A stretch of DNA of 64,000 bases from Candidatus Enterousia sp. (GTDB lineage Bacteria > Pseudomonadota > Alphaproteobacteria > Rs-D84), in assembly GCA_045643965.1 (NCBI GenBank), contig JAZRGB010000023.1, forward strand, positions 12,137 through 76,136. The letters are read 5' to 3'. A program made the position numbers and the translations under genes. The notes below the pieces were generated by a model. It ran no database searches. It saw only the letters and a program-made list of their open reading frames with translations, and was not told the DNA's origin. Shown here piece after piece: positions 47,576-58,621 of this stretch. Position 1 is the stretch's first letter. Every line of letters starts with the position of its first letter.

Positions 47576-48369
47576 TATTTATCCCCTGATTCTAATAATC
47601 TCTTGTATGCTTCTTTCTTAGATATTCCTGCACGCGATGCCAAATCTGCCGCCGCACTTTTCATCGATGTTGCTGCAATATCATTTACAATATTACTAAT
47701 TTCTTCATCTGTCATTTTATGTTCTGGACGCGGACCGACAACAATAACAATTTCACCACGTGGCGGTGTTATATTCATCAAATCAGAAGGATACCCAACA
47801 ATTGTTTCTTCGTACATTTTTGTAATTTCACGAACGATTGCAATTTTGCGTTCTGGCATAACGCGTGCAAAAGACGCAATTGTATTCATAACACGATTTG
47901 GACTTTCATAATAAATTATTGTATGCGGTATTTTATTATCATCACGTAATTTCTTTTCATCAAAAAACCCACAGAACGTAAATCTGTCTGTTGGGAACCC
48001 AGACAACACCAACGCAGAAATTGCCGCCACAGGTCCCGGAACAACAAAAACAGACACCCCCGCTTCACGTGCCGCCCGCACCAATCTGAACCCTGGGTCA
48101 CTGATTCCTGGCATACCTGCATCACTGACCGCTGCAATTGCAAGTCCATTTTGCATTTTTTCAATCAATTCTGGCACTACATCACGTTCATTATGTTCAT
48201 GACAAGAAATACGCTTTGTTTTTATATCAAAATGTGATGCCAACTTACCAAAAACACGTGTATCTTCTGCAGCGATTAAATCGACAGACTGTAAAACTTC
48301 AATCGCACGTGGCGACATATCAGACAAATTTCCAATTGGCGTACCAACAATATAAAGCCCTGATTGCAT
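47575..48369 (-). CDS. rsmI: 16S rRNA (cytidine1402-2'-O)-methyltransferase RsmI
   Basis: LYIVGTPIGNLSDMSPRAIEVLQSVDLIAAEDTR, tetrapyrrole-methylase fold. 264 aa. Confidence 0.9.
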   Translation of the reverse strand: MQSGLYIVGTPIGNLSDMSPRAIEVLQSVDLIAAEDTRVFGKLASHFDIKTKRISCHEHNERDVVPELIEKMQNGLAIAAVSDAGMPGISDPGFRLVRAAREAGVSVFVVPGPVAAISALVLSGFPTDRFTFCGFFDEKKLRDDNKIPHTIIYYESPNRVMNTIASFARVMPERKIAIVREITKMYEETIVGYPSDLMNITPPRGEIVIVVGPRPEHKMTDEEISNIVNDIAATSMKSAAADLASRAGISKKEAYKRLLESGDK

Positions 48370-48417
48370 TTAGAATCCTTTTATAGTAAAATGATACAAA
48401 ATAAAATGGATTTTTCA

Positions 48418-50007
48418 ATGTATATAAACAGAATTTTTACTTATTTAATTTCAGTCTTTGTTTTAACAGGCTGTGCGGGCAAATTAACCCAAGATGCAAA
48501 TTGGTCTGTATCTGATGATACAGTTGTGGGTCACCCATCTAATCTGGAACACGGTCCGTTTTCAAACATGTACGGCACATTTACAGACGACGCACATAAT
48601 ATTGCAGTACTGTTACCATTATCTGGCACATCTGCATCTGCAGGCAAGACAATCCGCACATCTGTTGAAATAGCAGTACTGGAAAGCAGTGCTCAAAATC
48701 TGTCTGTATCATTTTATGACACCGCATCTGATGCAAAAACATCAATTGATACCGCATTGGCATCAAATCCAGATGTTATAATTGGCCCACTGTTTGCCAA
48801 AGACGCATATGATTTACGCAAATCAAAGCCATCTGAAACACCTGCTATATCATTTACATCTGATGCGACTGCGGTTGGTGATGGTGTTTTAAGCGTTGCA
48901 TTAATGCCAAACAATGGTGTCGAAGAAATCGTCAAACAAATTAAATCTGACGATATCAAGAAATTCATTATTATCGCCCCCGACACAAAATCAGGTCATT
49001 TAATGGCAGGCACCGCAAAATCGGCTGCCCAAATTTATGAAATGCCATTAATTGGAATATTCTTTTACACAGAAAAAGATTCCGATTCCATTAAAAATGC
49101 CGCAATGTCTGCATCAATGTATAATGCACGAACAACCGCACACACACGTGCACGTCAGGTTATATCTGATGTCTTGACTGGTGAAACATTAACTCCTATT
49201 GAAAAATCAAACTTAAACACCCAACTGGAAAAACTGGAAAAAACAGAAACAGTTGGCAACGTACCGTATGACGGAATTTTATTCTTAGGCAACGGTGAAG
49301 ACACCAAGGCACTGGCATCCTTTCTGCGTTATTACAATGTTGGTGCACGCGACGCCGCATTTTATGGAACAACAATGTGGGACGGATCAGATATCGCATC
49401 TGATTACACGTTAAGCGGTGCAAAATACGCCACAATGCCACAAACAAAACCAGAATTTACAGCATTATATGAACAAGTATCTGGCACAACACCAAATCGA
49501 CTGGCCAGTTTTGGATACGACGCAACCAACATGGCGATTAATATGCTGGCATCCAACAAATCTAAATCTGCATATTTATTAGACCCCAGCGGTTACATCG
49601 GAACAGACGGTCTGTTCAGATTAAAACCAAATGGCGACAACGAACGTGCATTACGCATAATGCAGTTGAACGGTTCTGGCACACCAACTGAAATCCGCCC
49701 TGCACCAACCAGTTTTATGATACCATTGTATAACATTGAACAGAAACGCATTGAACCAGCAAATGCAATGGACATGGAAACATCTGGCATTGACCCAGAC
49801 GATTATATTCGTCTGCCAGAAAGATTGCGTGATAAATATCGCAGCAAAACAATCGGTGCAAACACAAAACAAGAATCAACACCAATTCCAACAAATATCG
49901 TTACAATAGAATCAGACAACACATCTATAAAATCATCTGAATTTAAACCTGTAAAATTGGAATCTGTTAAACGCACATACATCGAAGAATACGAAATCGA
50001 AGAATAA
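48418..50007 (+). CDS. LppC/LpoA-family lipoprotein (penicillin-binding-protein-activator-like, periplasmic-binding-protein fold)
   Basis: ORF 48364..50007. Start chosen at MYINRIFTYLISVFVLTGC (lipobox). A periplasmic-binding-protein type-1-like segment (IAVLLPLSGTSASAGK) is present. The gene is divergent from rsmI, as in the rsmI-lpoA/lppC synteny. Confidence 0.5.
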   Translation: MYINRIFTYLISVFVLTGCAGKLTQDANWSVSDDTVVGHPSNLEHGPFSNMYGTFTDDAHNIAVLLPLSGTSASAGKTIRTSVEIAVLESSAQNLSVSFYDTASDAKTSIDTALASNPDVIIGPLFAKDAYDLRKSKPSETPAISFTSDATAVGDGVLSVALMPNNGVEEIVKQIKSDDIKKFIIIAPDTKSGHLMAGTAKSAAQIYEMPLIGIFFYTEKDSDSIKNAAMSASMYNARTTAHTRARQVISDVLTGETLTPIEKSNLNTQLEKLEKTETVGNVPYDGILFLGNGEDTKALASFLRYYNVGARDAAFYGTTMWDGSDIASDYTLSGAKYATMPQTKPEFTALYEQVSGTTPNRLASFGYDATNMAINMLASNKSKSAYLLDPSGYIGTDGLFRLKPNGDNERALRIMQLNGSGTPTEIRPAPTSFMIPLYNIEQKRIEPANAMDMETSGIDPDDYIRLPERLRDKYRSKTIGANTKQESTPIPTNIVTIESDNTSIKSSEFKPVKLESVKRTYIEEYEIEE

Positions 50008-50716: not shown

Positions 50717-51445
50717 ATGGCTATTATACTTGGCGGTGGTGGACATGGGGAACAAACCGTTATTACAAACAAGTTATTTGAAAGTTTAATAGATTCAAAC
50801 AAACCGATTTTATATATTCCTTTGGCGTGGGAACACTATGACGAAGGTTATCAAAATTGTAAAAAGTTTTTAATTGGCGAATTTAGTAACATCAAACATG
50901 GCGAAATAGAAGTTATACAATCTGCAGACGAAATTTTAGATAAAAATTTATTTGATTATTCTGCTATTTTTATCGGCGGTGGAAATACCTATAAATTATT
51001 AAAAAATTTGAAAGACAGTGGTGCATTCGAAAAAATAAAACAATATACCGACAACGGTGGCATTGTTTATGGTGGCAGTGCTGGTGCCGCAATATTTGGC
51101 AAAGATATTAATTCTATTTTTTATATGGATACAAATAATGTCGATTTAAAAGACACCAGCGGATTTAATTCACTATTTGGATTTTCACTTACTGCACACT
51201 ATACAAATCAAAGTGAAGAGAATCATAAACACGCCACAGAATATATAACAAAATATTCTATGCACGAACCAATAATCGCATTACCAGAAGAAGACAGTCT
51301 TTATACAGATGGGAAAATTGTAAAAATAGTTGGGTCAAGACCATGGTATATTTTCAACAATGGTAAAAATCAACAATCAGCACCGAACGTTGAATACACA
51401 CGTGATGAATTTATCAATATTGTAAAAACCACCAGCAATACCTAA
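50717..51445 (+). CDS. Peptidase E / S51-family dipeptidase
   Basis: IFIGGGNTYKLLKNL … YGGSAGAAIFG (catalytic Ser in GGSAG). 242 aa. Confidence 0.7.
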   Translation: MAIILGGGGHGEQTVITNKLFESLIDSNKPILYIPLAWEHYDEGYQNCKKFLIGEFSNIKHGEIEVIQSADEILDKNLFDYSAIFIGGGNTYKLLKNLKDSGAFEKIKQYTDNGGIVYGGSAGAAIFGKDINSIFYMDTNNVDLKDTSGFNSLFGFSLTAHYTNQSEENHKHATEYITKYSMHEPIIALPEEDSLYTDGKIVKIVGSRPWYIFNNGKNQQSAPNVEYTRDEFINIVKTTSNT

Positions 51446-51715: not shown

Positions 51716-51746
51716 ACAAAAAACACCCCAAACGGGGTGTTTTTTA
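51716..51746 (-). terminator. Rho-independent terminator downstream of the tRNA genes (also functional-looking on the plus strand)
   Basis: aaaaaacaccccaaacggggtgttttttatt. Confidence 0.7.
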
Positions 51747-51749
51747 TTT

Positions 51750-51825
51750 CTGGTGGGAGTGGCTGGATTCGAACCAGCTCAGGCTTAAGCCAACAGATTT
51801 ACAGTCTGCCCCGGCTCTCCAACTC
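51750..51825 (-). tRNA. tRNA-Tyr(GTA)-like gene, 3' two-thirds canonical, 5' acceptor/D-arm region not canonical (possibly truncated or pseudo)
   Basis: The minus-strand sequence reads …gcaga CTGTAAA tctgt | tggcttaagcc (long variable arm) | gctgg TTCGAAT ccagc | cactccc A CCA. The anticodon GTA, class-II variable arm and T-arm are canonical. Only about 17 nt precede the anticodon stem, too few for an acceptor strand plus D-arm. The candidate 5' strand ggagttg pairs imperfectly with the 3' strand. Confidence 0.45.
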
Positions 51826-51843
51826 CGGCGCACGCCCAATCCT

Positions 51844-51917
51844 TGGTGCGGGCAGCGGGAATCGAACCCGCATTTCAAGCTTGGAAGGCTTGCATACTAG
51901 CCTTTGTACTATGCCCG
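51844..51917 (-). tRNA. tRNA-Gly(TCC)
   Basis: GCGGGCA TA GTAC AAAGGCTA GTAT G CAAGC CTTCCAA GCTTG AAAT GCGGG TTCGATT CCCGC TGCCCGC A CCA. All stems pair. Anticodon TCC. The 3' CCA is encoded. Confidence 0.85.
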
Positions 51918-51999
51918 CAACAAAATCAAAGCCCAGTGATTATATAATAAATGAAATCAAAATCAAGACATTTTTTACCAAAACAACATAATTAGCAAA

Positions 52000-52107
52000 G
52001 AAATTAAAGATAATGATTTAGATAAAAACAAATCGGGAATCGTAGTGTACAAACGCTACATGAATTGACCGGTACTGCTTTTAGATAAATTATTATCGGC
52101 AATTTTT
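52000..52107. repeat. Palindromic hairpin element (E6), type-II left terminus, degenerate (non-complementary right arm)
   Basis: gaaattaaagataatgatttagataaaa | arm acaaatcgggaatc | core GTAGTGTACAAACGCTACATGAATTG (52042-52067) | accggtactg | cttttagataaattattatcggcaattttt. Confidence 0.6.
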
Positions 52108-52109
52108 TA

Positions 52110-52213
52110 GAAATAAATTAGAATAGTTTAGATAAAAGTAGTGCCGGCAATGTAGTGTACAGACGCTACATAAATTGCCGGCACCGCTTTTAGATAAATT
52201 ATTATAATTTATT
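52110..52213. repeat. Palindromic hairpin element (E7), type-I termini
   Basis: gaaataaattagaatagtttagataaaa | stem gtagtgccggcaat / attgccggcaccgc | core GTAGTGTACAGACGCTACATAAAT (52152-52175) | ttttagataaattattataatttatttt. It abuts the stop codon (tta 52214-16) of the small Cys-rich gene. Confidence 0.75.
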
Positions 52214-52489
52214 TTATTTGATTGGCGGGAAACAATCACCCCCACTCTCTGGACAACAGTTATATCCTAAATCACCCATGTTGGTATAAACTTCACCAAC
52301 ACAACAACCATTTTTATCTGGTGTTGTGCCATCAAGACATTTCAACGATGGACCAAATGAAAACATATCAATATTTGCATATACTAAAATACCAAACATT
52401 GCACCCAACACAAAAGAAACAACCAAGGAAACCCATGATGTTGTTTTACTTGTTTTTTTCATTGTTGATTTTTTTGTAACTTTTTTCAT
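52214..52489 (-). CDS. Small membrane-anchored protein with a C-terminal 7-Cys module (paralog of 52503..53060)
   Basis: A basic N-terminus plus TM helix (WVSLVVSFVLGAMFGILVYA), then CLDGTTPDKNGCCVGEVYTNMGDLGYNCCPESGGDCFPPIK. The motif is shared with the neighbouring gene. Confidence 0.6.
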   Translation of the reverse strand: MKKVTKKSTMKKTSKTTSWVSLVVSFVLGAMFGILVYANIDMFSFGPSLKCLDGTTPDKNGCCVGEVYTNMGDLGYNCCPESGGDCFPPIK

Positions 52490-52502
52490 ATTTTCTATCC
52501 TC

Positions 52503-53060
52503 TTATTCTATTGGCGGAAAACATTCACCATCCCCAGACTTTGGACAACATGCAAAAACAGAATTACCAAGGTCTTTAAAGACTTCACCTGTGCAACAAC
52601 CAAACTTGTTTGGTTTTGTTCCATCAACACACAAACCCGCATCCAAATTTGCCAATTCTTGTTCCAACAATGCTTCTTCATCGATTTCTTCTGTTTCTTC
52701 TGCGACAAATTCTTCGTCTTCGACGGCTACTTCTGCCGCTGTTGTTACGACATCAGATTTTGTTTCTGTAACTGTTTCTTCTGCAACCTCTTCTGGGGTT
52801 GTAACAGTTGCAGCAACAACAGTATTTTTCACCGCAGACGACTTACGTTTTGCTGCACTGCGTGAACACTTGCTGCGATAATCTGTCTTTAATTTATCCA
52901 ATTCTGCGATTTCGTCTTCTGTTGGTTCTTCGACAGCAGACAATTCTGTAATTTTCGCCTGAATATCTGCACAAGACACACGTTCTGCAACATTTGGTGT
53001 ATCTTCTGCAAATGCACCTGTCGCAGTAATTAATCCAATTAACGCAATCAATATTTTCAT
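52503..53060 (-). CDS. Secreted acidic protein with a C-terminal 7-Cys module (paralog of 52214..52489)
   Basis: Signal peptide MKILIALIGLITATGAFA, a Glu/Thr/Val-rich acidic linker, then CVDGTKPNKFGCCTGEVFKDLGNSVFACCPKSGDGECFPPIE. Confidence 0.6.
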   Translation of the reverse strand: MKILIALIGLITATGAFAEDTPNVAERVSCADIQAKITELSAVEEPTEDEIAELDKLKTDYRSKCSRSAAKRKSSAVKNTVVAATVTTPEEVAEETVTETKSDVVTTAAEVAVEDEEFVAEETEEIDEEALLEQELANLDAGLCVDGTKPNKFGCCTGEVFKDLGNSVFACCPKSGDGECFPPIE

Positions 53061-53073
53061 ATGATGTACCTTT

Positions 53074-53820
53074 TTAGTGTTCGTTTATGATTTTTTCGAC
53101 TTCCAGAATAAAATCTATCGCAGGATTTGTTAATTTTTTTGCAGTTTCAAAAATTTCTTCTGCGGCAGCTTGCATATTTAAACGTTTATACGTTTCAACA
53201 ACTTCGATTGTTTCTTCATTGTTAAATTCATCGTCTTGCAATGCACGTGCAATTTCCAATTCTTGCTTTGCCAGTTCAACATATTTTGCTTTGTTTTCAT
53301 CACAGCCACGTTCTGACAAGTTTGCATAAATTTTTGCACGTGTAATACGTTGATATGGTGGCATAGAAGTATATTCTTCTGGTAATTTGTCTAATAATGA
53401 TGCTTCTATTTTTTGACATGTTGTTTGTGCATCATTCTGTCCACCCAACGCAGCAACTATTTCCATTTCACGTGATATTGCAGCACGATACACACCTTTA
53501 TTCTGTGGACAACCATGCTGGAACAATGTTTCATAAATTCGAATATTGTCTTTATGATATTCTATATTACTTGAATTTTCATCATTCAAATACCCCAACT
53601 GAATTTCTTCGATAATGGCACAAGTTTCTTTTTGCTGATTCTGTTGTAATTCTGTTGCGTCCTGAACCAATGCTTGTTTTGGTTTTTCAGTGTTATATCC
53701 AATTCCCATACCAACCATAACACCACACACAAACAGCATTATCAGTGCCAACCAACCCTTGATTTTCTGTGAACGTGTATAAACAACTTTATAAACTTTC
53801 TTAGATTGTTTTTTTGCCAT
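53074..53820 (-). CDS. Hypothetical membrane-anchored protein with two ~60-aa internal repeats
   Basis: ORF 53074..53868. Start chosen at MAKKQSKK, with SD ggagagg upstream. The TM helix is WLALIMLFVCGVMVGMGIGY. Repeats are (…IYETLFQHGCPQNKGVYRAAISREMEIVAAL…) and (…IYANLSERGCDENKAKYVELAKQELEIARAL…). Confidence 0.55.
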   Translation of the reverse strand: MAKKQSKKVYKVVYTRSQKIKGWLALIMLFVCGVMVGMGIGYNTEKPKQALVQDATELQQNQQKETCAIIEEIQLGYLNDENSSNIEYHKDNIRIYETLFQHGCPQNKGVYRAAISREMEIVAALGGQNDAQTTCQKIEASLLDKLPEEYTSMPPYQRITRAKIYANLSERGCDENKAKYVELAKQELEIARALQDDEFNNEETIEVVETYKRLNMQAAAEEIFETAKKLTNPAIDFILEVEKIINEH

Positions 53821-53851
53821 AATTTCCCCTCTCCTATTTTCTGCTATTATA

Positions 53852-54562
53852 CTATTGAACAACGCCATTGTGAATAGTTATTTTTCTATCTGCTCTGTCT
53901 GCCAATGACATATCATGTGTAACAAACAGCATTGCCATTTTATTTTTACGCACAATATCCAACAACAAATCAAACACGGCACCTGCATGTTGCGGATCCA
54001 AATTACCTGTTGGTTCATCAGCCAATAATATATCAGGATTATTTGCCAACGCACGTGCCAACGCAGTTCGCTGTTGTTCACCGCCACTCATTTCCCCTGG
54101 ATGATGCGATGCACGATGTGCAACATTTGTTGCCTTTAATAATTTTATTGCACGTGTATTTGCAGTATCTTCGTCCATACCATTTGCCAACATTGGCAAG
54201 ACAACATTTTCCAGTGCTGTAAAATCAGATAACAAATTATGTTTTTGATATACAAAACCAATTTTATTTCTGCGTATTTTTGTACGCATATCTTCGTCCA
54301 TTTTATGTACAGGTGCCCCAGAAATAACAATACTGCCACCACTTGGCTTATCCAGCAACCCAACACACTGTAACAACGTAGATTTACCACATCCAGACTG
54401 TCCAACCAAGGCAATTATTTCCCCACGATGCAAATCAAAACCACCACCACGTAAAATATGCAATGGTTGACCGCCTTCGATAAAGGTCTTTTTAATATCA
54501 CGCACCGACAGAACGACATCACCCTGCTTTACCCGTGACAAAGAATTTAAAATATTCGCCAT
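53852..54562 (-). CDS. lolD: Lipoprotein-releasing system ATP-binding protein LolD
   Basis: GEIIALVGQSGCGKSTLL Walker A, LSGGEQQRTALARAL signature, and the LolD-specific region. 236 aa. Confidence 0.85.
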   Translation of the reverse strand: MANILNSLSRVKQGDVVLSVRDIKKTFIEGGQPLHILRGGGFDLHRGEIIALVGQSGCGKSTLLQCVGLLDKPSGGSIVISGAPVHKMDEDMRTKIRRNKIGFVYQKHNLLSDFTALENVVLPMLANGMDEDTANTRAIKLLKATNVAHRASHHPGEMSGGEQQRTALARALANNPDILLADEPTGNLDPQHAGAVFDLLLDIVRKNKMAMLFVTHDMSLADRADRKITIHNGVVQ

Positions 54563-55219
54563 TTATTCTTTTTCCTTACCTTGATTTTTCTTCATTAAAT
54601 ACTCGTTCACTTGTTTTTGCAATAACGCCCTATTATCTGGACATAATATATACTCTAAACGTACGCCTATCTTGTCTAAAACAATTCTTAATTGTTTCTG
54701 TTCATTATGATCAGACTCTGCTTGTTCATAACTTCTATTTATAAAATAAGATATTTCTTCTGGTCCAAAACCATACAGGGCCCCTCTTAAAAAATTGCTT
54801 TTAGCAATCTCATCATCCGGAACATTTACAATTGATAGTTCTGGATTATTTTCTTGTACCCATTTAAAATGTTTATCAAGAAACTCTAAATATTTTGTTC
54901 TTTGACTTGCCCGATATTTTTCCACAACATCCAGTTCTTCATCAGACAAGTCCCCCCTATCCACACAGCCAATTTGAATCAAGTCTTTAATAGTGGGATA
55001 CTTAAAGACAAAAAAATCAATCTTTCCTGATTCTATTTCAAATTTTTCAGGAGGCATTCCACCTGGCAACTTATATTGAAACCATAACCTTTTTGGAAAT
55101 TTAATTCCCAGCCTTGCCAAATCCGTTTCTAATATTTGTGCAGAAGAATTATACCCACCACCAACATTTGCAAACTGCAACATACAAGCATTCAAAAAAA
55201 GCATTAATTTTTTATTCAT
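54563..55219 (-). CDS. Hypothetical periplasmic protein/lipoprotein encoded between lolC and lolD
   Basis: 218 aa with signal peptide MNKKLMLFLNACMLQFA (possible lipobox LNAC). It abuts the lolD start with a 0-nt gap and overlaps the lolC stop by 8 nt. No similarity to LolA or LolB is recognisable by eye. Confidence 0.55.
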   Translation of the reverse strand: MNKKLMLFLNACMLQFANVGGGYNSSAQILETDLARLGIKFPKRLWFQYKLPGGMPPEKFEIESGKIDFFVFKYPTIKDLIQIGCVDRGDLSDEELDVVEKYRASQRTKYLEFLDKHFKWVQENNPELSIVNVPDDEIAKSNFLRGALYGFGPEEISYFINRSYEQAESDHNEQKQLRIVLDKIGVRLEYILCPDNRALLQKQVNEYLMKKNQGKEKE

Positions 55220-56465
55220 TACGTAATACCTCTACCGGGTCTGTATTTGCGGCCTTCCATGCAGGATACAATGTTGCCAAGAATGCCAACGCAACTGCAA
55301 TTAATGCAATTCCCAATACATCTGTCCATACCAGTTTAGATGGTAACTCAGACAAATAATACAATTCCGCAGGAAACAAATCACGCCCTGTTAACCATTG
55401 GAAAAACTGTCTGATTGGTTCGATATAAATCGCAATCACAACCCCCAGAATTGTTCCAAAAAACGCACCAATAACACCGATTGATGTACCCGACAAAACA
55501 AATATCTTCATCATCGATTTACGCGACACGCCAAACGTACGCAGCACTGCGATATCTTTGTTTTTATCTTTAACCAACATAACCAATGACGACACAATAT
55601 TAAACGCAGCCACAATTACAATCAGCAACAAGATTAAAAACATAACATTTGATTCAACCTGTAACGCACCAACAAAACCACGATTTAAATCACGCCAATC
55701 ACGAACAACGAAACCGTCCGGCAACAAACGTCCAAGTGCAGATGCAACATCTGTTGTGTCTTCTGGGTTTTTCAAGAACAAATCAATATGCGTAACAGAA
55801 TTTGGAATATTCAAATATTTTTGTGCTGTTTCCAACGGCATAAATATATACCCAGAATCATATTCATACATACCCATAAAGAACGAACTTTTTACTGGAT
55901 ACGACATAATCCGTGGCATTGATCCAAATGGGGTTGGTGTTGCACCATTTGCAGACACTAATGAAATATTATCCCCCATACCAACACGCAACGCACGTGT
56001 CAGCGATGCCCCCGCAACCAATTCGCCATCTGTGATTGCAGATAAATCTTTACCATAAATACGTGTTCCTGTTTTTGTTTTGGCTGCTAAATCAGACATA
56101 CGAATACCACGAACCATTGCACCTGTATTATTACCATTTGCAGTTGCCATAACCTGACCTTCAGCAATTGGAACAATACCTGTTATATTTTCTGCAACAA
56201 TCTTGTTTTGTTTCATCTTGTCAATCAAGAAATCAAAGTCTGATATCGCACCATCTTGATGATAAACAACAACATGCCCGTTCATACCAACAATACGTCC
56301 CAACAACGTATCATGAAAACCACCCATAACAGACATTACAACAATCAACGTTGCAACACCCAGCATAATACCAATCAAAGACACCCACGAAATAACAGAA
56401 CCAAAACCACGTTTTTTGGCACCCAAATATCTAAAAGCTATTTTTCTTTCCAGTTTTGAAAACAT
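55212..56465 (-). CDS. lolC: Lipoprotein-releasing system transmembrane protein LolC/LolE
   Basis: FtsX-like permease with a MacB-like periplasmic domain. N-terminus MFSKLERKIAFRYLGAKKRGFGSVISWVSLIGIMLGVATL is typical of LolC/E. Confidence 0.85.
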   Translation of the reverse strand: MFSKLERKIAFRYLGAKKRGFGSVISWVSLIGIMLGVATLIVVMSVMGGFHDTLLGRIVGMNGHVVVYHQDGAISDFDFLIDKMKQNKIVAENITGIVPIAEGQVMATANGNNTGAMVRGIRMSDLAAKTKTGTRIYGKDLSAITDGELVAGASLTRALRVGMGDNISLVSANGATPTPFGSMPRIMSYPVKSSFFMGMYEYDSGYIFMPLETAQKYLNIPNSVTHIDLFLKNPEDTTDVASALGRLLPDGFVVRDWRDLNRGFVGALQVESNVMFLILLLIVIVAAFNIVSSLVMLVKDKNKDIAVLRTFGVSRKSMMKIFVLSGTSIGVIGAFFGTILGVVIAIYIEPIRQFFQWLTGRDLFPAELYYLSELPSKLVWTDVLGIALIAVALAFLATLYPAWKAANTDPVEVLRNE

Positions 56466-56475
56466 TAAAATTTCC

Positions 56476-57804
56476 TTATTCGTTCAAGAAATCACGCAAT
56501 GCGTCACCGATTAATTCTTCGGTATTATCATCATGCCCTGTTGCACCATCCATTATTGAAATAATACGTGGCGACATAAACACAACCAGTTCCGCAAATG
56601 GCGACACCAATGTTTCTGGGGTTGTAACAAAAGAATGTGTTGGAATACCAACAATTACATAATTATCACCAACAGTCGTTGGGATATTAAACGAAGACAA
56701 TTCTCCATTTGATGTTCGCAGAACAATTTTTGCATCAATTTTATCACGACCACCAAAGTCCCCATACGTACCTGTTGCACCAATAATCAAATCTGTTTCC
56801 AGTCTTTCTTCCTTGCCACATTGACCAATATCAAAACGTGACTGCCAACCATTTGGAATCGCAAAGGTTCCTTGGGAAATCAGAACAACATTTGCTTGCT
56901 GACCTAAAAATTCTTGTAATGTTTTTGTATTAATTTCTGGTCCAACAACCAATGCACGACCAACAACCCCAGGGATAGACATTTTCACATTTTTATCCCC
57001 AAACGCAGGCAACAAATTCATCCAAACTATTGGATTATCTGTACGTGGATACACACGATAAACATCAATATCCCATGCAATCATGTATTTTTTTCCTGCA
57101 ATATCTGCAATTATCTTTGCGACTTCACGTTCTGTCTGATAATTACCTTCGAACACGACTGTTTTATCGTTCCAATCAACCAGCAGATTTCGCATATCAG
57201 CACCATGCATCGCATCCAACAACGCCATAATAATAGTTTCATTATGTGGCATTTTTATCAGCCACTTTGCACGATGTGTTAAATGTAATTCACCATTATG
57301 TTCATCATAAGAATAATAAACACGTCCCATTTTTGTCATCAGTTCAACAGCATCTGCCAATGTTCCAGACGAAATAGAACCAGATATTTTTTCATATAAT
57401 GGTTCGTCTTCAATAACTGCAATATCTGTACCCAACAACAACTTATCTAACGCTTGTTTAACCGTCAAATCTTTGAATTCATAGTCATCGACTTTCAGTT
57501 CTGGCAATTCATCACCTGTTGCCAAACGAATAATTTCGACTTTTTCTTCTGGAACAACAGACACAACCTTTTGATTATTCCAATCAACTTCACATCTTTT
57601 TGGCAACTCTATTGAAAACCTGCGTGCAGTATCAGTTGTTAATGCGGCTTTTTTCGGGAAAATTGGCACAGAATTTTCATCAATAACCAGATTATCAACA
57701 ACTGTTATTGTATCGTACAAAGGCACATTCTGTTGTTTCTGTGTACATCCCAGCATCACAAAAACCGACAACAAGCCAATCAAACTTTTTTTCAAAAAGA
57801 TCAT
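56476..57804 (-). CDS. Secretin-family outer-membrane lipoprotein (GspD/PilQ/BfpB-like; tentative)
   Basis: Lipoprotein signal (LSVFVMLGC). C-terminal secretin-like motifs …VIVGIPT… and LVVFMSPRII (compare LVIFLTPxII in secretins). There are no other secretion or pilus genes in the window. Confidence 0.4.
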   Translation of the reverse strand: MIFLKKSLIGLLSVFVMLGCTQKQQNVPLYDTITVVDNLVIDENSVPIFPKKAALTTDTARRFSIELPKRCEVDWNNQKVVSVVPEEKVEIIRLATGDELPELKVDDYEFKDLTVKQALDKLLLGTDIAVIEDEPLYEKISGSISSGTLADAVELMTKMGRVYYSYDEHNGELHLTHRAKWLIKMPHNETIIMALLDAMHGADMRNLLVDWNDKTVVFEGNYQTEREVAKIIADIAGKKYMIAWDIDVYRVYPRTDNPIVWMNLLPAFGDKNVKMSIPGVVGRALVVGPEINTKTLQEFLGQQANVVLISQGTFAIPNGWQSRFDIGQCGKEERLETDLIIGATGTYGDFGGRDKIDAKIVLRTSNGELSSFNIPTTVGDNYVIVGIPTHSFVTTPETLVSPFAELVVFMSPRIISIMDGATGHDDNTEELIGDALRDFLNE

Positions 57805-57840: not shown

Positions 57841-58164
57841 TCAAATATTCATAACTTTTTCAAATTCTGCCAACGTCATTTCATGTATTGGTTTTTGCGT
57901 TGGTGTTGTTAAATCTTTGACCTTGTCAAACTGAACAGCAAACCGATTTATCAAATTTATGATATCAGGCGACAAACTTTTATCCACATCGATTAAACGT
58001 CTGCCATATTCTACAACATATTCCAACAAGTCTGCAGCATAAAAACGTCCATTATAATTTTCCATTGCAATTCCGCCCTTTTGGACACATATTGCAGACA
58101 TAAGCATTGCCGTCTGATTATACAAATTTGCCAGTTTTATAAACTGTTGTACAGATATTGCCAT
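57841..58164 (-). CDS. Hypothetical protein
   Basis: 107-aa ORF with coding-like composition and no recognisable motif. Confidence 0.4.
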   Translation of the reverse strand: MAISVQQFIKLANLYNQTAMLMSAICVQKGGIAMENYNGRFYAADLLEYVVEYGRRLIDVDKSLSPDIINLINRFAVQFDKVKDLTTPTQKPIHEMTLAEFEKVMNI

Positions 58165-58240: not shown

Positions 58241-58621
58241 ATGAGAATAAAAATTTTACCAATTTTACTGATATTAACCGCATGTGCATCTGCCAATCGT
58301 GGCAGTATTGATGACGCAACAATCCTGAACTGGGAAAACGAAGCGGTAACAACTGAACAATTCGTACGTGACCACAAGGCGTGTTTGGGCATAAACAAAC
58401 CTGCACACCAACCACGTTCACGTATTGCAAAATTGCTGTCCCCAAATCAAAGTTCAATTATGCCGGATTGGGACGGTCTGTGGGTAACATTTCAATCAAA
58501 CGAATATCGTGATGTTGGTCAACGCAGTTTAATGTCTGTACCACGCAATACTGCATCTAAAACAGTCGGTGCATATCGCAGATGTATGTTCAGACGTGGA
58601 TATTTACTGCGTGCAATGTAA
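58241..58621 (+). CDS. Hypothetical lipoprotein
   Basis: Signal peptide plus lipobox MRIKILPILLILTAC. 126 aa. Confidence 0.5.
   Translation: MRIKILPILLILTACASANRGSIDDATILNWENEAVTTEQFVRDHKACLGINKPAHQPRSRIAKLLSPNQSSIMPDWDGLWVTFQSNEYRDVGQRSLMSVPRNTASKTVGAYRRCMFRRGYLLRAM

Follow-up and report, generated by a model that had tools for sequence, protein, structure and literature searches.

Two small neighbouring genes in a 64,000-nucleotide stretch of Candidatus Enterousia sp. DNA (the whole of which is called the window here) raise the question of what a short cysteine-rich segment does when it ends two proteins of different size and build. The first of these genes, Y (52503-53060, minus strand), encodes a secreted protein of 185 residues that is predicted to be periplasmic; the second, Z (52214-52489, minus strand), encodes 91 residues in which a hydrophobic segment links the basic N-terminus to a six-cysteine module. 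The explanation preferred here, tentatively and as somewhat short of an even bet, takes the module to be a docking unit, held stable by disulfides, in an envelope complex formed by Y, Z and the product of the gene that precedes them, X. The module belongs to a domain family that appears to be undescribed and restricted to a poorly known gut lineage.

The C-terminal 42 residues of Y and Z align with 57% identity and 81% positives (pairwise E = 3e-17) and share the pattern C-x10-CC-x14-CC-x6/7-C-F-P-P-I-x. An original prediction had proposed that these two small minus-strand reading frames are real genes with a common C-terminal module, and both parts of that proposal hold, as does its motif string, which matches both proteins; the seven cysteines it claimed come down to six. 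The Y-type copy (CVDGTKPNKFGCCTGEVFKDLGNSVFACCPKSGDGECFPPIE; 52506-52631, minus strand; Y residues 144-185) and the Z-type copy (CLDGTTPDKNGCCVGEVYTNMGDLGYNCCPESGGDCFPPIK; 52217-52339, minus strand; Z residues 51-91) are recovered by hmmsearch at E = 5e-22 and E = 8e-23, respectively, and a six-frame scan of the window with a hidden Markov model (HMM) finds the module in the Y and Z reading frames only. The X/Y and Y/Z gaps are both 13 nucleotides long, with the Shine-Dalgarno sequence AAGAGGA 7 nucleotides 5' of Z, a Shine-Dalgarno-like AAAGG 5' of Y and AGGAGAGGGG 5' of X. Across species, the module codons show proportions of nonsynonymous (pN) and synonymous (pS) differences of about 0.15 and about 0.75, the latter saturated, and the resulting pN/pS of about 0.2 indicates strong purifying selection on the module; the measure is a cross-species one, strains at 98-99% DNA identity having too few substitutions for a ratio of substitution rates (dN/dS).

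Y has more than 310 homologues, those listed being full-length with identities down to 45%, and Z belongs to a family of 39; the homologues of both are without Pfam domains and without informative names. Twenty-two positions are invariant in the Z family, 20 of them inside the 42-residue module, and all eight cysteines of Y are invariant, including two, C30 and C65, that lie outside the module in an N-terminal hairpin. The novelty claimed for the module is likewise upheld, as it matches no described family in Pfam, NCBIfam, PHROGs or a sequence profile search of the PDB. Such PDB searches, with the module, with X or with lip442, a lipoprotein encoded further upstream, returned nothing or noise (WlaL, E = 0.3), and literature searches gave background on the lineage only, with nothing on these proteins.

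A module profile of 43 positions, searched against 1.84 billion representative proteins, recovered 255 clusters at E<=1e-3 and 137 at E<=1e-10. In nearly all clusters the module ends 2-7 residues from the C-terminus, and it is present in one to three copies per protein; the named carriers are all hypothetical proteins of metagenome-assembled genomes (MAGs) of Alphaproteobacteria or Proteobacteria. Some carriers are Y-like proteins of 170-330 residues with one to three modules, and others are Z-like proteins of 60-130 residues. In a further architecture, of 500-850 residues, a TrbI/VirB10 domain (PF03743) has a Cys...Cys segment, then a linker and then the module behind it. The PF03743 scores of five such relatives (P0203, P0226, P0235, P0255 and P0259) are 40-66 bits against a cutoff of 35, and the genes of the fusions stand in virB8-virB9-virB10 clusters, which belong to type IV secretion systems (T4SS). 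The Y and Z proteins of the window have no TrbI domain, and the window encodes no T4SS component. In two of the related loci (L054, 2683-5235; L061, 10001-12436) the VirB10/TrbI protein ends in a cassette of Cys-bracketed segment, linker and Z-type module, and the virB8-virB9-virB10 genes of L061 are flanked by secE-nusG-rplK and yidC-lspA in the core chromosome, a layout that recalls the T4SS genes scattered over the chromosomes of Rickettsiales.

HMMs made from the Y and Z families, applied to the modules of 50%-identity representatives, assign modules to a Y-type and a Z-type subtype. The long TrbI-type proteins carry a Z-type module in 18 of 19 cases, and the internal modules of multi-module proteins are Z-type in 14 of 16, with the last module being Y-type in 9 of 15 such proteins. 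At the level of genes, the relatives considered are the 46 genomes, all of them MAGs, in which Y was recovered in a scan of one genome per species. Y and then Z are adjacent in 31 of these, and in six others there is no separate Z gene and Y itself carries an internal Z-type and a terminal Y-type module. Because the two parts are separate genes in some genomes and fused in others, they can be taken to work together, and the functional coupling of the two genes that their pairing had suggested is thereby supported. Nine genomes remain, in which Y has a single module and no Z beside it; three of their contigs stop within about 300 bp beyond Y.

Z-like genes are also found in other settings. In L005 (6001-6240), and also in L006 and L007, a 79-residue Z-like gene starts 4 bp after a gene for an LppC/LpoA-type lipoprotein, and the genes upstream (PDDEXK nuclease, GTPase, methylase) are the same as in the window, where the LppC homologue (48364-50007, plus strand; identified by Pfam) is on the other strand, at a distance of about 2 kb from Z. 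In L058 (8005-8277) two small genes lie 3' of a 325-residue Y-like gene; one is normally Z-like, and the other has a shortened, four-cysteine module, ECLDGLSPDGNVCCSNNAVDCVSLPKK, that is possibly a decaying or minimal variant.

A module carried by an envelope-spanning T4SS protein would also suit an explanation in which, like hevein and similar mini-domains that bind carbohydrate and are rich in disulfides, it binds glycan or peptidoglycan, conserved aromatic residues fastening Y, Z and the C-terminal end of VirB10 to either the sacculus or a glycan of the surface. Three aromatic positions are indeed conserved within the 42 residues (the [FY] after GE-x, the [FY] before CC, and CFPP), and a Z-like gene directly follows the gene of a peptidoglycan-synthesis activator of the LppC/LpoA type in another lineage, the window's own LppC gene being 2 kb off. 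One module member matches CBM_19 weakly (E = 0.052), but this lone match is at noise level, there is no significant similarity to carbohydrate-binding families, and the strict dichotomy of Y-type and Z-type modules, together with the pattern of fusions, fits recognition of a partner better than a shared glycan ligand. Glycan binding is thus considered unlikely, at perhaps one chance in a handful.

Y begins with a short signal peptide (53007-53060, minus strand; residues 1-18) that has the hydrophobic core ILIALIGLITA and ends ...AFA|ED; the probable cleavage site was placed by the -3/-1 rule, and A18, at position -1, is invariant in 70 homologues. There follows a helical hairpin (52836-52982, minus strand; residues ~27-75) that contains C30 and C65 and has a basic RGRR/AKRK tail after it. 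AlphaFold2 (AF2) models its helices at residues 30-41 and 48-75 with pLDDT of ~90, placing the two cysteines near the hairpin's two ends. The acidic linker beyond (52680-52835, minus strand; residues 76-127, 52 in all) is rich in Glu, Val, Thr and Ala, has a net charge of -14, is predicted to be disordered (pLDDT<50) and varies in length among homologues, so that the signal peptide and long acidic linker described in the original prediction are both confirmed. A helix, LEQELANLDAGL (52632-52679, minus strand; Y residues 128-143; AF2 helix 128-140), stands directly before the module; it precedes Y-type modules only, and its columns 132-143 are nearly invariant. The AF2 model of full-length Y is poor (mean pLDDT 62) except for the hairpin at 30-75, and a Foldseek search with it returned generic helical hairpins only. 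The one match that Pfam, NCBIfam and PHROGs give for either protein, between phrog_4521 (unknown function; E = 2.5e-4) and Y residues 28-125, spans the hairpin and linker, outside the module, and was treated as compositional.

Z has seven lysines in its first 18 residues and then a hydrophobic segment of ~21 residues (52370-52435, minus strand; residues ~19-40; mean Kyte-Doolittle value 2.33 over 19 residues), within which G29 and G33 are nearly invariant and form a GxxxG motif. The basic N-terminus and hydrophobic segment that had been described for Z are therefore present; the segment, which ends in a conserved [YH]-A-[NS], may be the transmembrane (TM) anchor that was read into it or a long signal peptide. 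The description of the module itself as cysteine-dense and extracytoplasmic is retained.

X (53074-53820, minus strand) encodes 248 residues from its second ATG, the start given by the gene callers, in a reading frame that is open to 53868, and in all 46 loci it is flanked by lolD and Y. The protein starts with a basic stretch and has a TM segment in which C-G-xxx-G is invariant; in the window there are two Cys...Cys helical hairpins, with cysteines 36-37 residues apart, and the C-terminal ~80 residues are nearly invariant. The number of hairpins varies by species from one to at least three, and the longest forms of X (344-351 residues) have an extra inserted segment with its own cysteine pair, for example ...GCVDVARVNAEHGCDI... 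The hairpins of X and Y were compared by hhalign (E = 0.062; E = 0.0021 for the extra hairpin of one species' X). BLAST of X against Y gave no alignment.

X, Y and Z, core extracytoplasmic proteins specific to the lineage, thus have parts in common two by two: a TM anchor in X and, putatively, in Z, a Cys-bracketed hairpin in X and Y, and the six-cysteine module in Y and Z. The hydrophobic segments of X and Z both carry conserved glycines of the GxxxG type. According to the docking explanation, the module would be an autonomous extracytoplasmic mini-domain built on its six invariant cysteines, which presumably form three disulfides, and Y would be a soluble periplasmic protein in which an acidic spacer, 50-100 residues long, joins a helical hairpin stapled by cysteines to the Y-type module. 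Contact between the modules of Y and Z would keep Y at the periplasmic side of the inner membrane, and Y perhaps would also touch membrane-anchored X through the helical hairpins of both; the Z-type module on the VirB10 of relatives would present the same docking surface. The complex of X, Y and Z would then belong to the structure of the envelope or take part in its assembly, and would be expressed together with the Lol lipoprotein exporter.

The genomic setting of this putative complex is highly constrained. The order o107 - lip442 - lolE - lolD - X - Y is found in 46 of 46 species-level genomes, the same order recurs in distant variants adjoining ftsQ/ftsA, and neighbouring genes stand close together or overlap. 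These genes make up an envelope operon with lolE and lolD that the Rs-D84/Ca. Enterousia lineage has inherited vertically, and Y and Z form its 3' end. In the window, lolE (55212-56465, minus strand), a lolC/E-type permease gene, matches TIGR02212 at 420.3 bits, above the cutoff of 362.45, and has the Pfam domains MacB_PCD and FtsX. The lolD-like gene (53852-54562, minus strand) encodes an ATPase of the ATP-binding cassette type whose best NCBIfam match, TIGR02211 (LolD), reaches 248.6 bits and is below the cutoff of 307.75; its Pfam domain is ABC_tran.

This invariant association with lolE, which is bona fide, and with a gene resembling lolD, in the 46 genomes and the distant variants alike, invites an explanation in which X, Y and Z, and perhaps lip442 and o107, are lineage-specific Lol accessory factors that hand over or receive lipoproteins as partners of LolDE, in place of factors of the LolA/LolB type that a reduced genome would be missing. 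The tight or overlapping gaps would fit such a role, as would the fact that lip442 is itself a lipoprotein with a mean column identity of 85%; Alphaproteobacteria are generally not known to have LolB. Y and Z, however, are unlike LolA and LolB, X, Y and Z have no NCBIfam or Pfam match, and a 42-residue cysteine module joined to a helical hairpin offers no obvious cavity for an acyl chain. In addition, the same module is found on VirB10, where there is no Lol connection, and a possible internal promoter lies ahead of X. A role as Lol accessory factors seems improbable.

The lip442 gene (56476-57804, minus strand) encodes a lineage-specific lipoprotein of 442 residues with the lipobox ...MLGC. 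Its 85% column identity was obtained in 20 species and is far above that of its neighbours; its 1235 homologues are all hypothetical proteins, and it has no Pfam, PDB or PHROG match. The possibility that it is a small secretin, considered from an STN-like motif seen by eye and the C-terminal ...ELVVFMSPRI, was rejected: STN was reached only at E = 0.031, and Secretin was matched neither in Pfam (E<=0.1) nor in the PDB profile search. Between lolE and lolD lies o218 (54563-55219, minus strand), a variable reading frame of 218 residues that overlaps lolE by 8 bp and abuts lolD; a counterpart is present in about 10 of the 46 loci at ~25% identity, and it matches no family in Pfam, NCBIfam or PHROGs. 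The first gene of the conserved cluster, o107 (57841-58164, minus strand), is found in every locus with enough upstream sequence, at 64-93% identity. Scans of X, Y, Z, o107, o218 and lip442 against Pfam, NCBIfam and PHROGs gave nothing usable.

A promoter-like match of 10/12 lies 5' of o107. The best of the region, the sigma-70-like TTCACA-17-TATAAT (53846-53874, minus strand; 11/12), is in the 3' end of lolD just 5' of X, and X, Y and Z might also be transcribed independently from it; promoter-like matches overall are no commoner than in shuffled sequence. Divergent from the operon, at 58241-58621 (plus strand), is the gene of a putative lipoprotein of 126 residues (MRIKILPILLILTAC...) whose only match, to COX17, is at noise level (E = 0.028), and a gene of the same size and orientation occupies this position in the distant relatives L058-L060.

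At the other end, a terminator-like stem-loop (52133-52192, minus strand; minimum free energy -32.5 kcal/mol, z = -6.84 against shuffles) stands directly after the Z stop codon and is followed by the U-rich tract CUUUUAUCU. It is the first copy (D1/I1) of an element of ~110 nucleotides and is plausibly the terminator of the operon. The second, tandem copy (51999-52096, minus strand) is degenerate, has 75-93% identity to the first and folds weakly (z = -2.0). Both copies lie within 51999-52205, between Z and the gene for tRNA-Gly (51844-51918), beyond which is that for tRNA-Tyr (51751-51837); the 64-kb window holds no further copy, and Rfam reports only the two tRNAs and noise around the repeats. 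Between tRNA-Tyr and the converging 242-residue reading frame at 50717-51445, a stem of 12 bp that contains GC and has runs of T at either side (51718-51745) resembles a bidirectional terminator. That chromosomal reading frame is one that we take, by eye, to encode an S51-type peptidase, and a neighbouring one, likewise by eye, a HAD-type hydrolase.

This region bears on the interpretation first offered for the pair, that Y is a toxin, bacteriocin or effector and Z its tethered immunity protein or receptor, on a mobile islet next to tRNA genes and flanked by hairpins. Both proteins are small and cysteine-rich with export signals, their genes are adjacent, and a tRNA pair and a repeat or hairpin are indeed nearby. 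The hairpins do not flank the genes, both ~110-nucleotide copies being in tandem downstream of Z only, and the adjacency to tRNAs is real although the islet is not: the pair has a fixed position behind lolD and X in 46 of 46 genomes, its GC content of 0.32-0.42 is like that of the surroundings, and it is the genes after Z that differ among genomes (tRNAs here, secB in L001, rgpF in L004). Presence, composition and repeats thus do not mark the locus as a mobile islet, no search aimed at integrases having been made, and tblastn of the modules against plasmid and phage collections found no match. A position inside a core operon in all 46 species, full-length Y homologues, modules under strong purifying selection and free of toxin-like polymorphism, and repeats that are unique in the window all speak against a toxin. 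So does the presence of the module in VirB10, and the occurrence of both module types in one secreted chain in six species hardly fits a toxin paired with an immunity protein. A bacteriocin-like or immunity arrangement is accordingly regarded as very improbable.

An AF2 model of the module alone, from an alignment of 137 sequences, has a pLDDT of 94.5 and a pTM of 0.70, with a beta-hairpin formed by residues 18-24 and 27-32, and the beta-hairpins of the predicted fold are stacked compactly, in a shape that comes closest to one half of a granulin repeat. The granulin-like cysteine pattern had been noted prior to the Foldseek search, in which no match in the PDB was significant (best E = 1.4) and five of the 19 matches listed were granulins, granulins being represented in the PDB copy searched by only eight distinct sequences. 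For 1G26, the N-terminal granulin A subdomain, the alignment has a root mean square deviation of 1.2 A over 19 columns at 32% identity; because the Foldseek score also uses residue identity, the shared cysteines may inflate this likeness. The granulin family PF00396 is reached by 5 of the 137 module sequences (best E = 0.05) and is not matched by the full-length proteins at E<=1, and hhalign of the module with four granulins (E = 0.016, probability 2.8%) aligns PD..GCC / CCP / C with PDGYTCC / CCP / C. Every test of granulin homology is thus below threshold, and the module was identified with no known domain. It is granulin-like in predicted shape, and convergence is as possible as homology. 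Read through the granulin alignment, the cysteines might be paired C1-C4, C2-C5 and C3-C6.

The same cysteines could have another use, with six of them, including two CC pairs, coordinating a metal or cluster, or shuttling electrons or thiol-disulfide equivalents within the periplasm. They are absolutely invariant and accompanied by an invariant Glu and a conserved Asp/Asn, and the lineage, being without respiratory chains, is without the usual quinone-linked DsbB route (PMC12306168). The module has no CxxC or His-containing ligand motifs, however, and its very confident, compact AF2 fold without a ligand is typical of disulfide-stabilised mini-proteins, the nearest folds being the disulfide-laddered granulins. 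The cysteine pairs of X and Y, placed exactly at the ends of helical hairpins, likewise argue for disulfide formation in the periplasm. A metal-binding or redox role is regarded as a distant candidate.

Several points weigh against the docking explanation itself. Contact between Y-type and Z-type modules is reasoned from their distribution; at least five genomes have Y and no adjacent Z, and in the six fused genomes the Z-type module is unanchored, which means that membrane anchoring is not essential. The conserved [YH]-A-[NS] at the end of the Z hydrophobic segment is a possible signal peptidase I site, and its use could leave Z soluble. The hhalign similarity between the hairpins of X and Y (E = 0.062 and 0.0021) is weak, and the resemblance to granulins is statistically insignificant (Foldseek E = 1.4; hhalign probability 2.8%). 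Co-transcription with lolE and lolD is no proof of a functional link, and the 11/12 promoter-like site lies just upstream of X. Finally, in a lineage without respiratory chains (PMC12306168) an oxidation system of the DsbA/DsbB type may be missing, and the cysteines could bind metal instead of forming disulfides.

The 46 genomes with Y are classified as Candidatus Enterousia sp. or as uncultured Alphaproteobacteria and come from the guts of humans, ruminants, horses and other animals. Genomes of this Rs-D84/Ca. Enterousia lineage measure ~0.75-1.0 Mb and encode neither a tricarboxylic acid cycle nor respiratory chains, and the bacteria are thought to be obligate symbionts or parasites of other cells, dependent on a partner (PMC12306168). 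The word endosymbiont, as had been supposed, is roughly right in spirit, given the reduced genome and presumed partner dependence (PMC12306168). The lineage has many uncharacterised membrane proteins and hypothetical envelope proteins (PMC12306168).

Set against this way of life, the module might have a wider meaning. Y-type and Z-type modules may be cognate "cysteine-ladder" connectors, a new docking code of the Rs-D84 lineage that would physically couple biogenesis of the outer membrane and of lipoproteins (LolDE, lip442) with the T4SS. The soluble adaptor Y would be wired to the anchors Z and X and to the VirB10 C-terminus, and the T4SS would be the machine by which a partner-dependent bacterium of ~0.9 Mb lives off other cells. 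This extension of the docking explanation is doubtful, a good deal more speculative than a local complex of X, Y and Z. In a still more daring variant, the granulin-like module would reach the cell surface and there serve attachment to a partner or host, or mimicry towards it.

Whichever of these roles applies, Ca. Enterousia/Rs-D84 bacteria are widespread, uncultured inhabitants of the guts of animals and humans, and in a genome of ~900 genes a seven-gene operon conserved in every species is likely to be important, as is a mini-domain reused on the VirB10 channel. The 42-residue module is confidently predicted, easily synthesised and experimentally tractable. Should its likeness to granulin be due to homology, it would be a relative, rare in bacteria, of a growth-factor fold of eukaryotes; should it be due to convergence, the module would be a new instance of the cysteine-ladder solution for tiny stable domains.

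Knottin or inhibitor cystine knot (ICK) toxins and defensins, to which it had been likened, are similar in size and cysteine density, but the ICK pattern C-C-CC-C-C differs from that of the module, and the affinity is not borne out: the cysteine spacing differs, the Foldseek probabilities for beta-defensin 4 and psalmotoxin are 0.02 and 0.08, and Toxin_35 is matched by one of 137 module members at E = 5. With LolCDE operons (lolCDE of E. coli, lolE-lolD of Alphaproteobacteria) the common ground is one of position, Y and Z being co-oriented with, and tightly packed behind, lolE and a lolD-like ATPase gene; no Lol operon is known to include genes like X, Y or Z. The Z-type cassette on the VirB10 of relatives recalls the C-terminal extensions of other VirB10/TrbI proteins such as CagY of H. 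pylori, and the cysteine-rich mating-pair protein TraN of F-like plasmids is a further analogue, in both cases by analogy only; there is no sequence similarity to TraN or to the CagY repeats. Cysteine-rich extracytoplasmic parts of T4SS proteins mediate contacts. The closest likeness is to granulin (PF00396; 2JYE, human granulin A; 1G26; carp granulin-1), which, as the module is predicted to be, is a small, cysteine-laddered beta-hairpin domain, with adjacent CC pairs that the module shares, and whose motif C-P-D-G-x-T-CC ... CCP ... C runs parallel to C-[LP]-D-G-T-x-P-D-x-x-G-CC ... CCP ... C. Granulin has 12 cysteines with four CC pairs (C-C-CC-CC-CC-CC-C-C), whereas the module has six (C-CC-CC-C) and longer hairpin loops, and granulins are secreted growth factors or protease appendages of eukaryotes, whereas the module is a part of bacterial envelope proteins.

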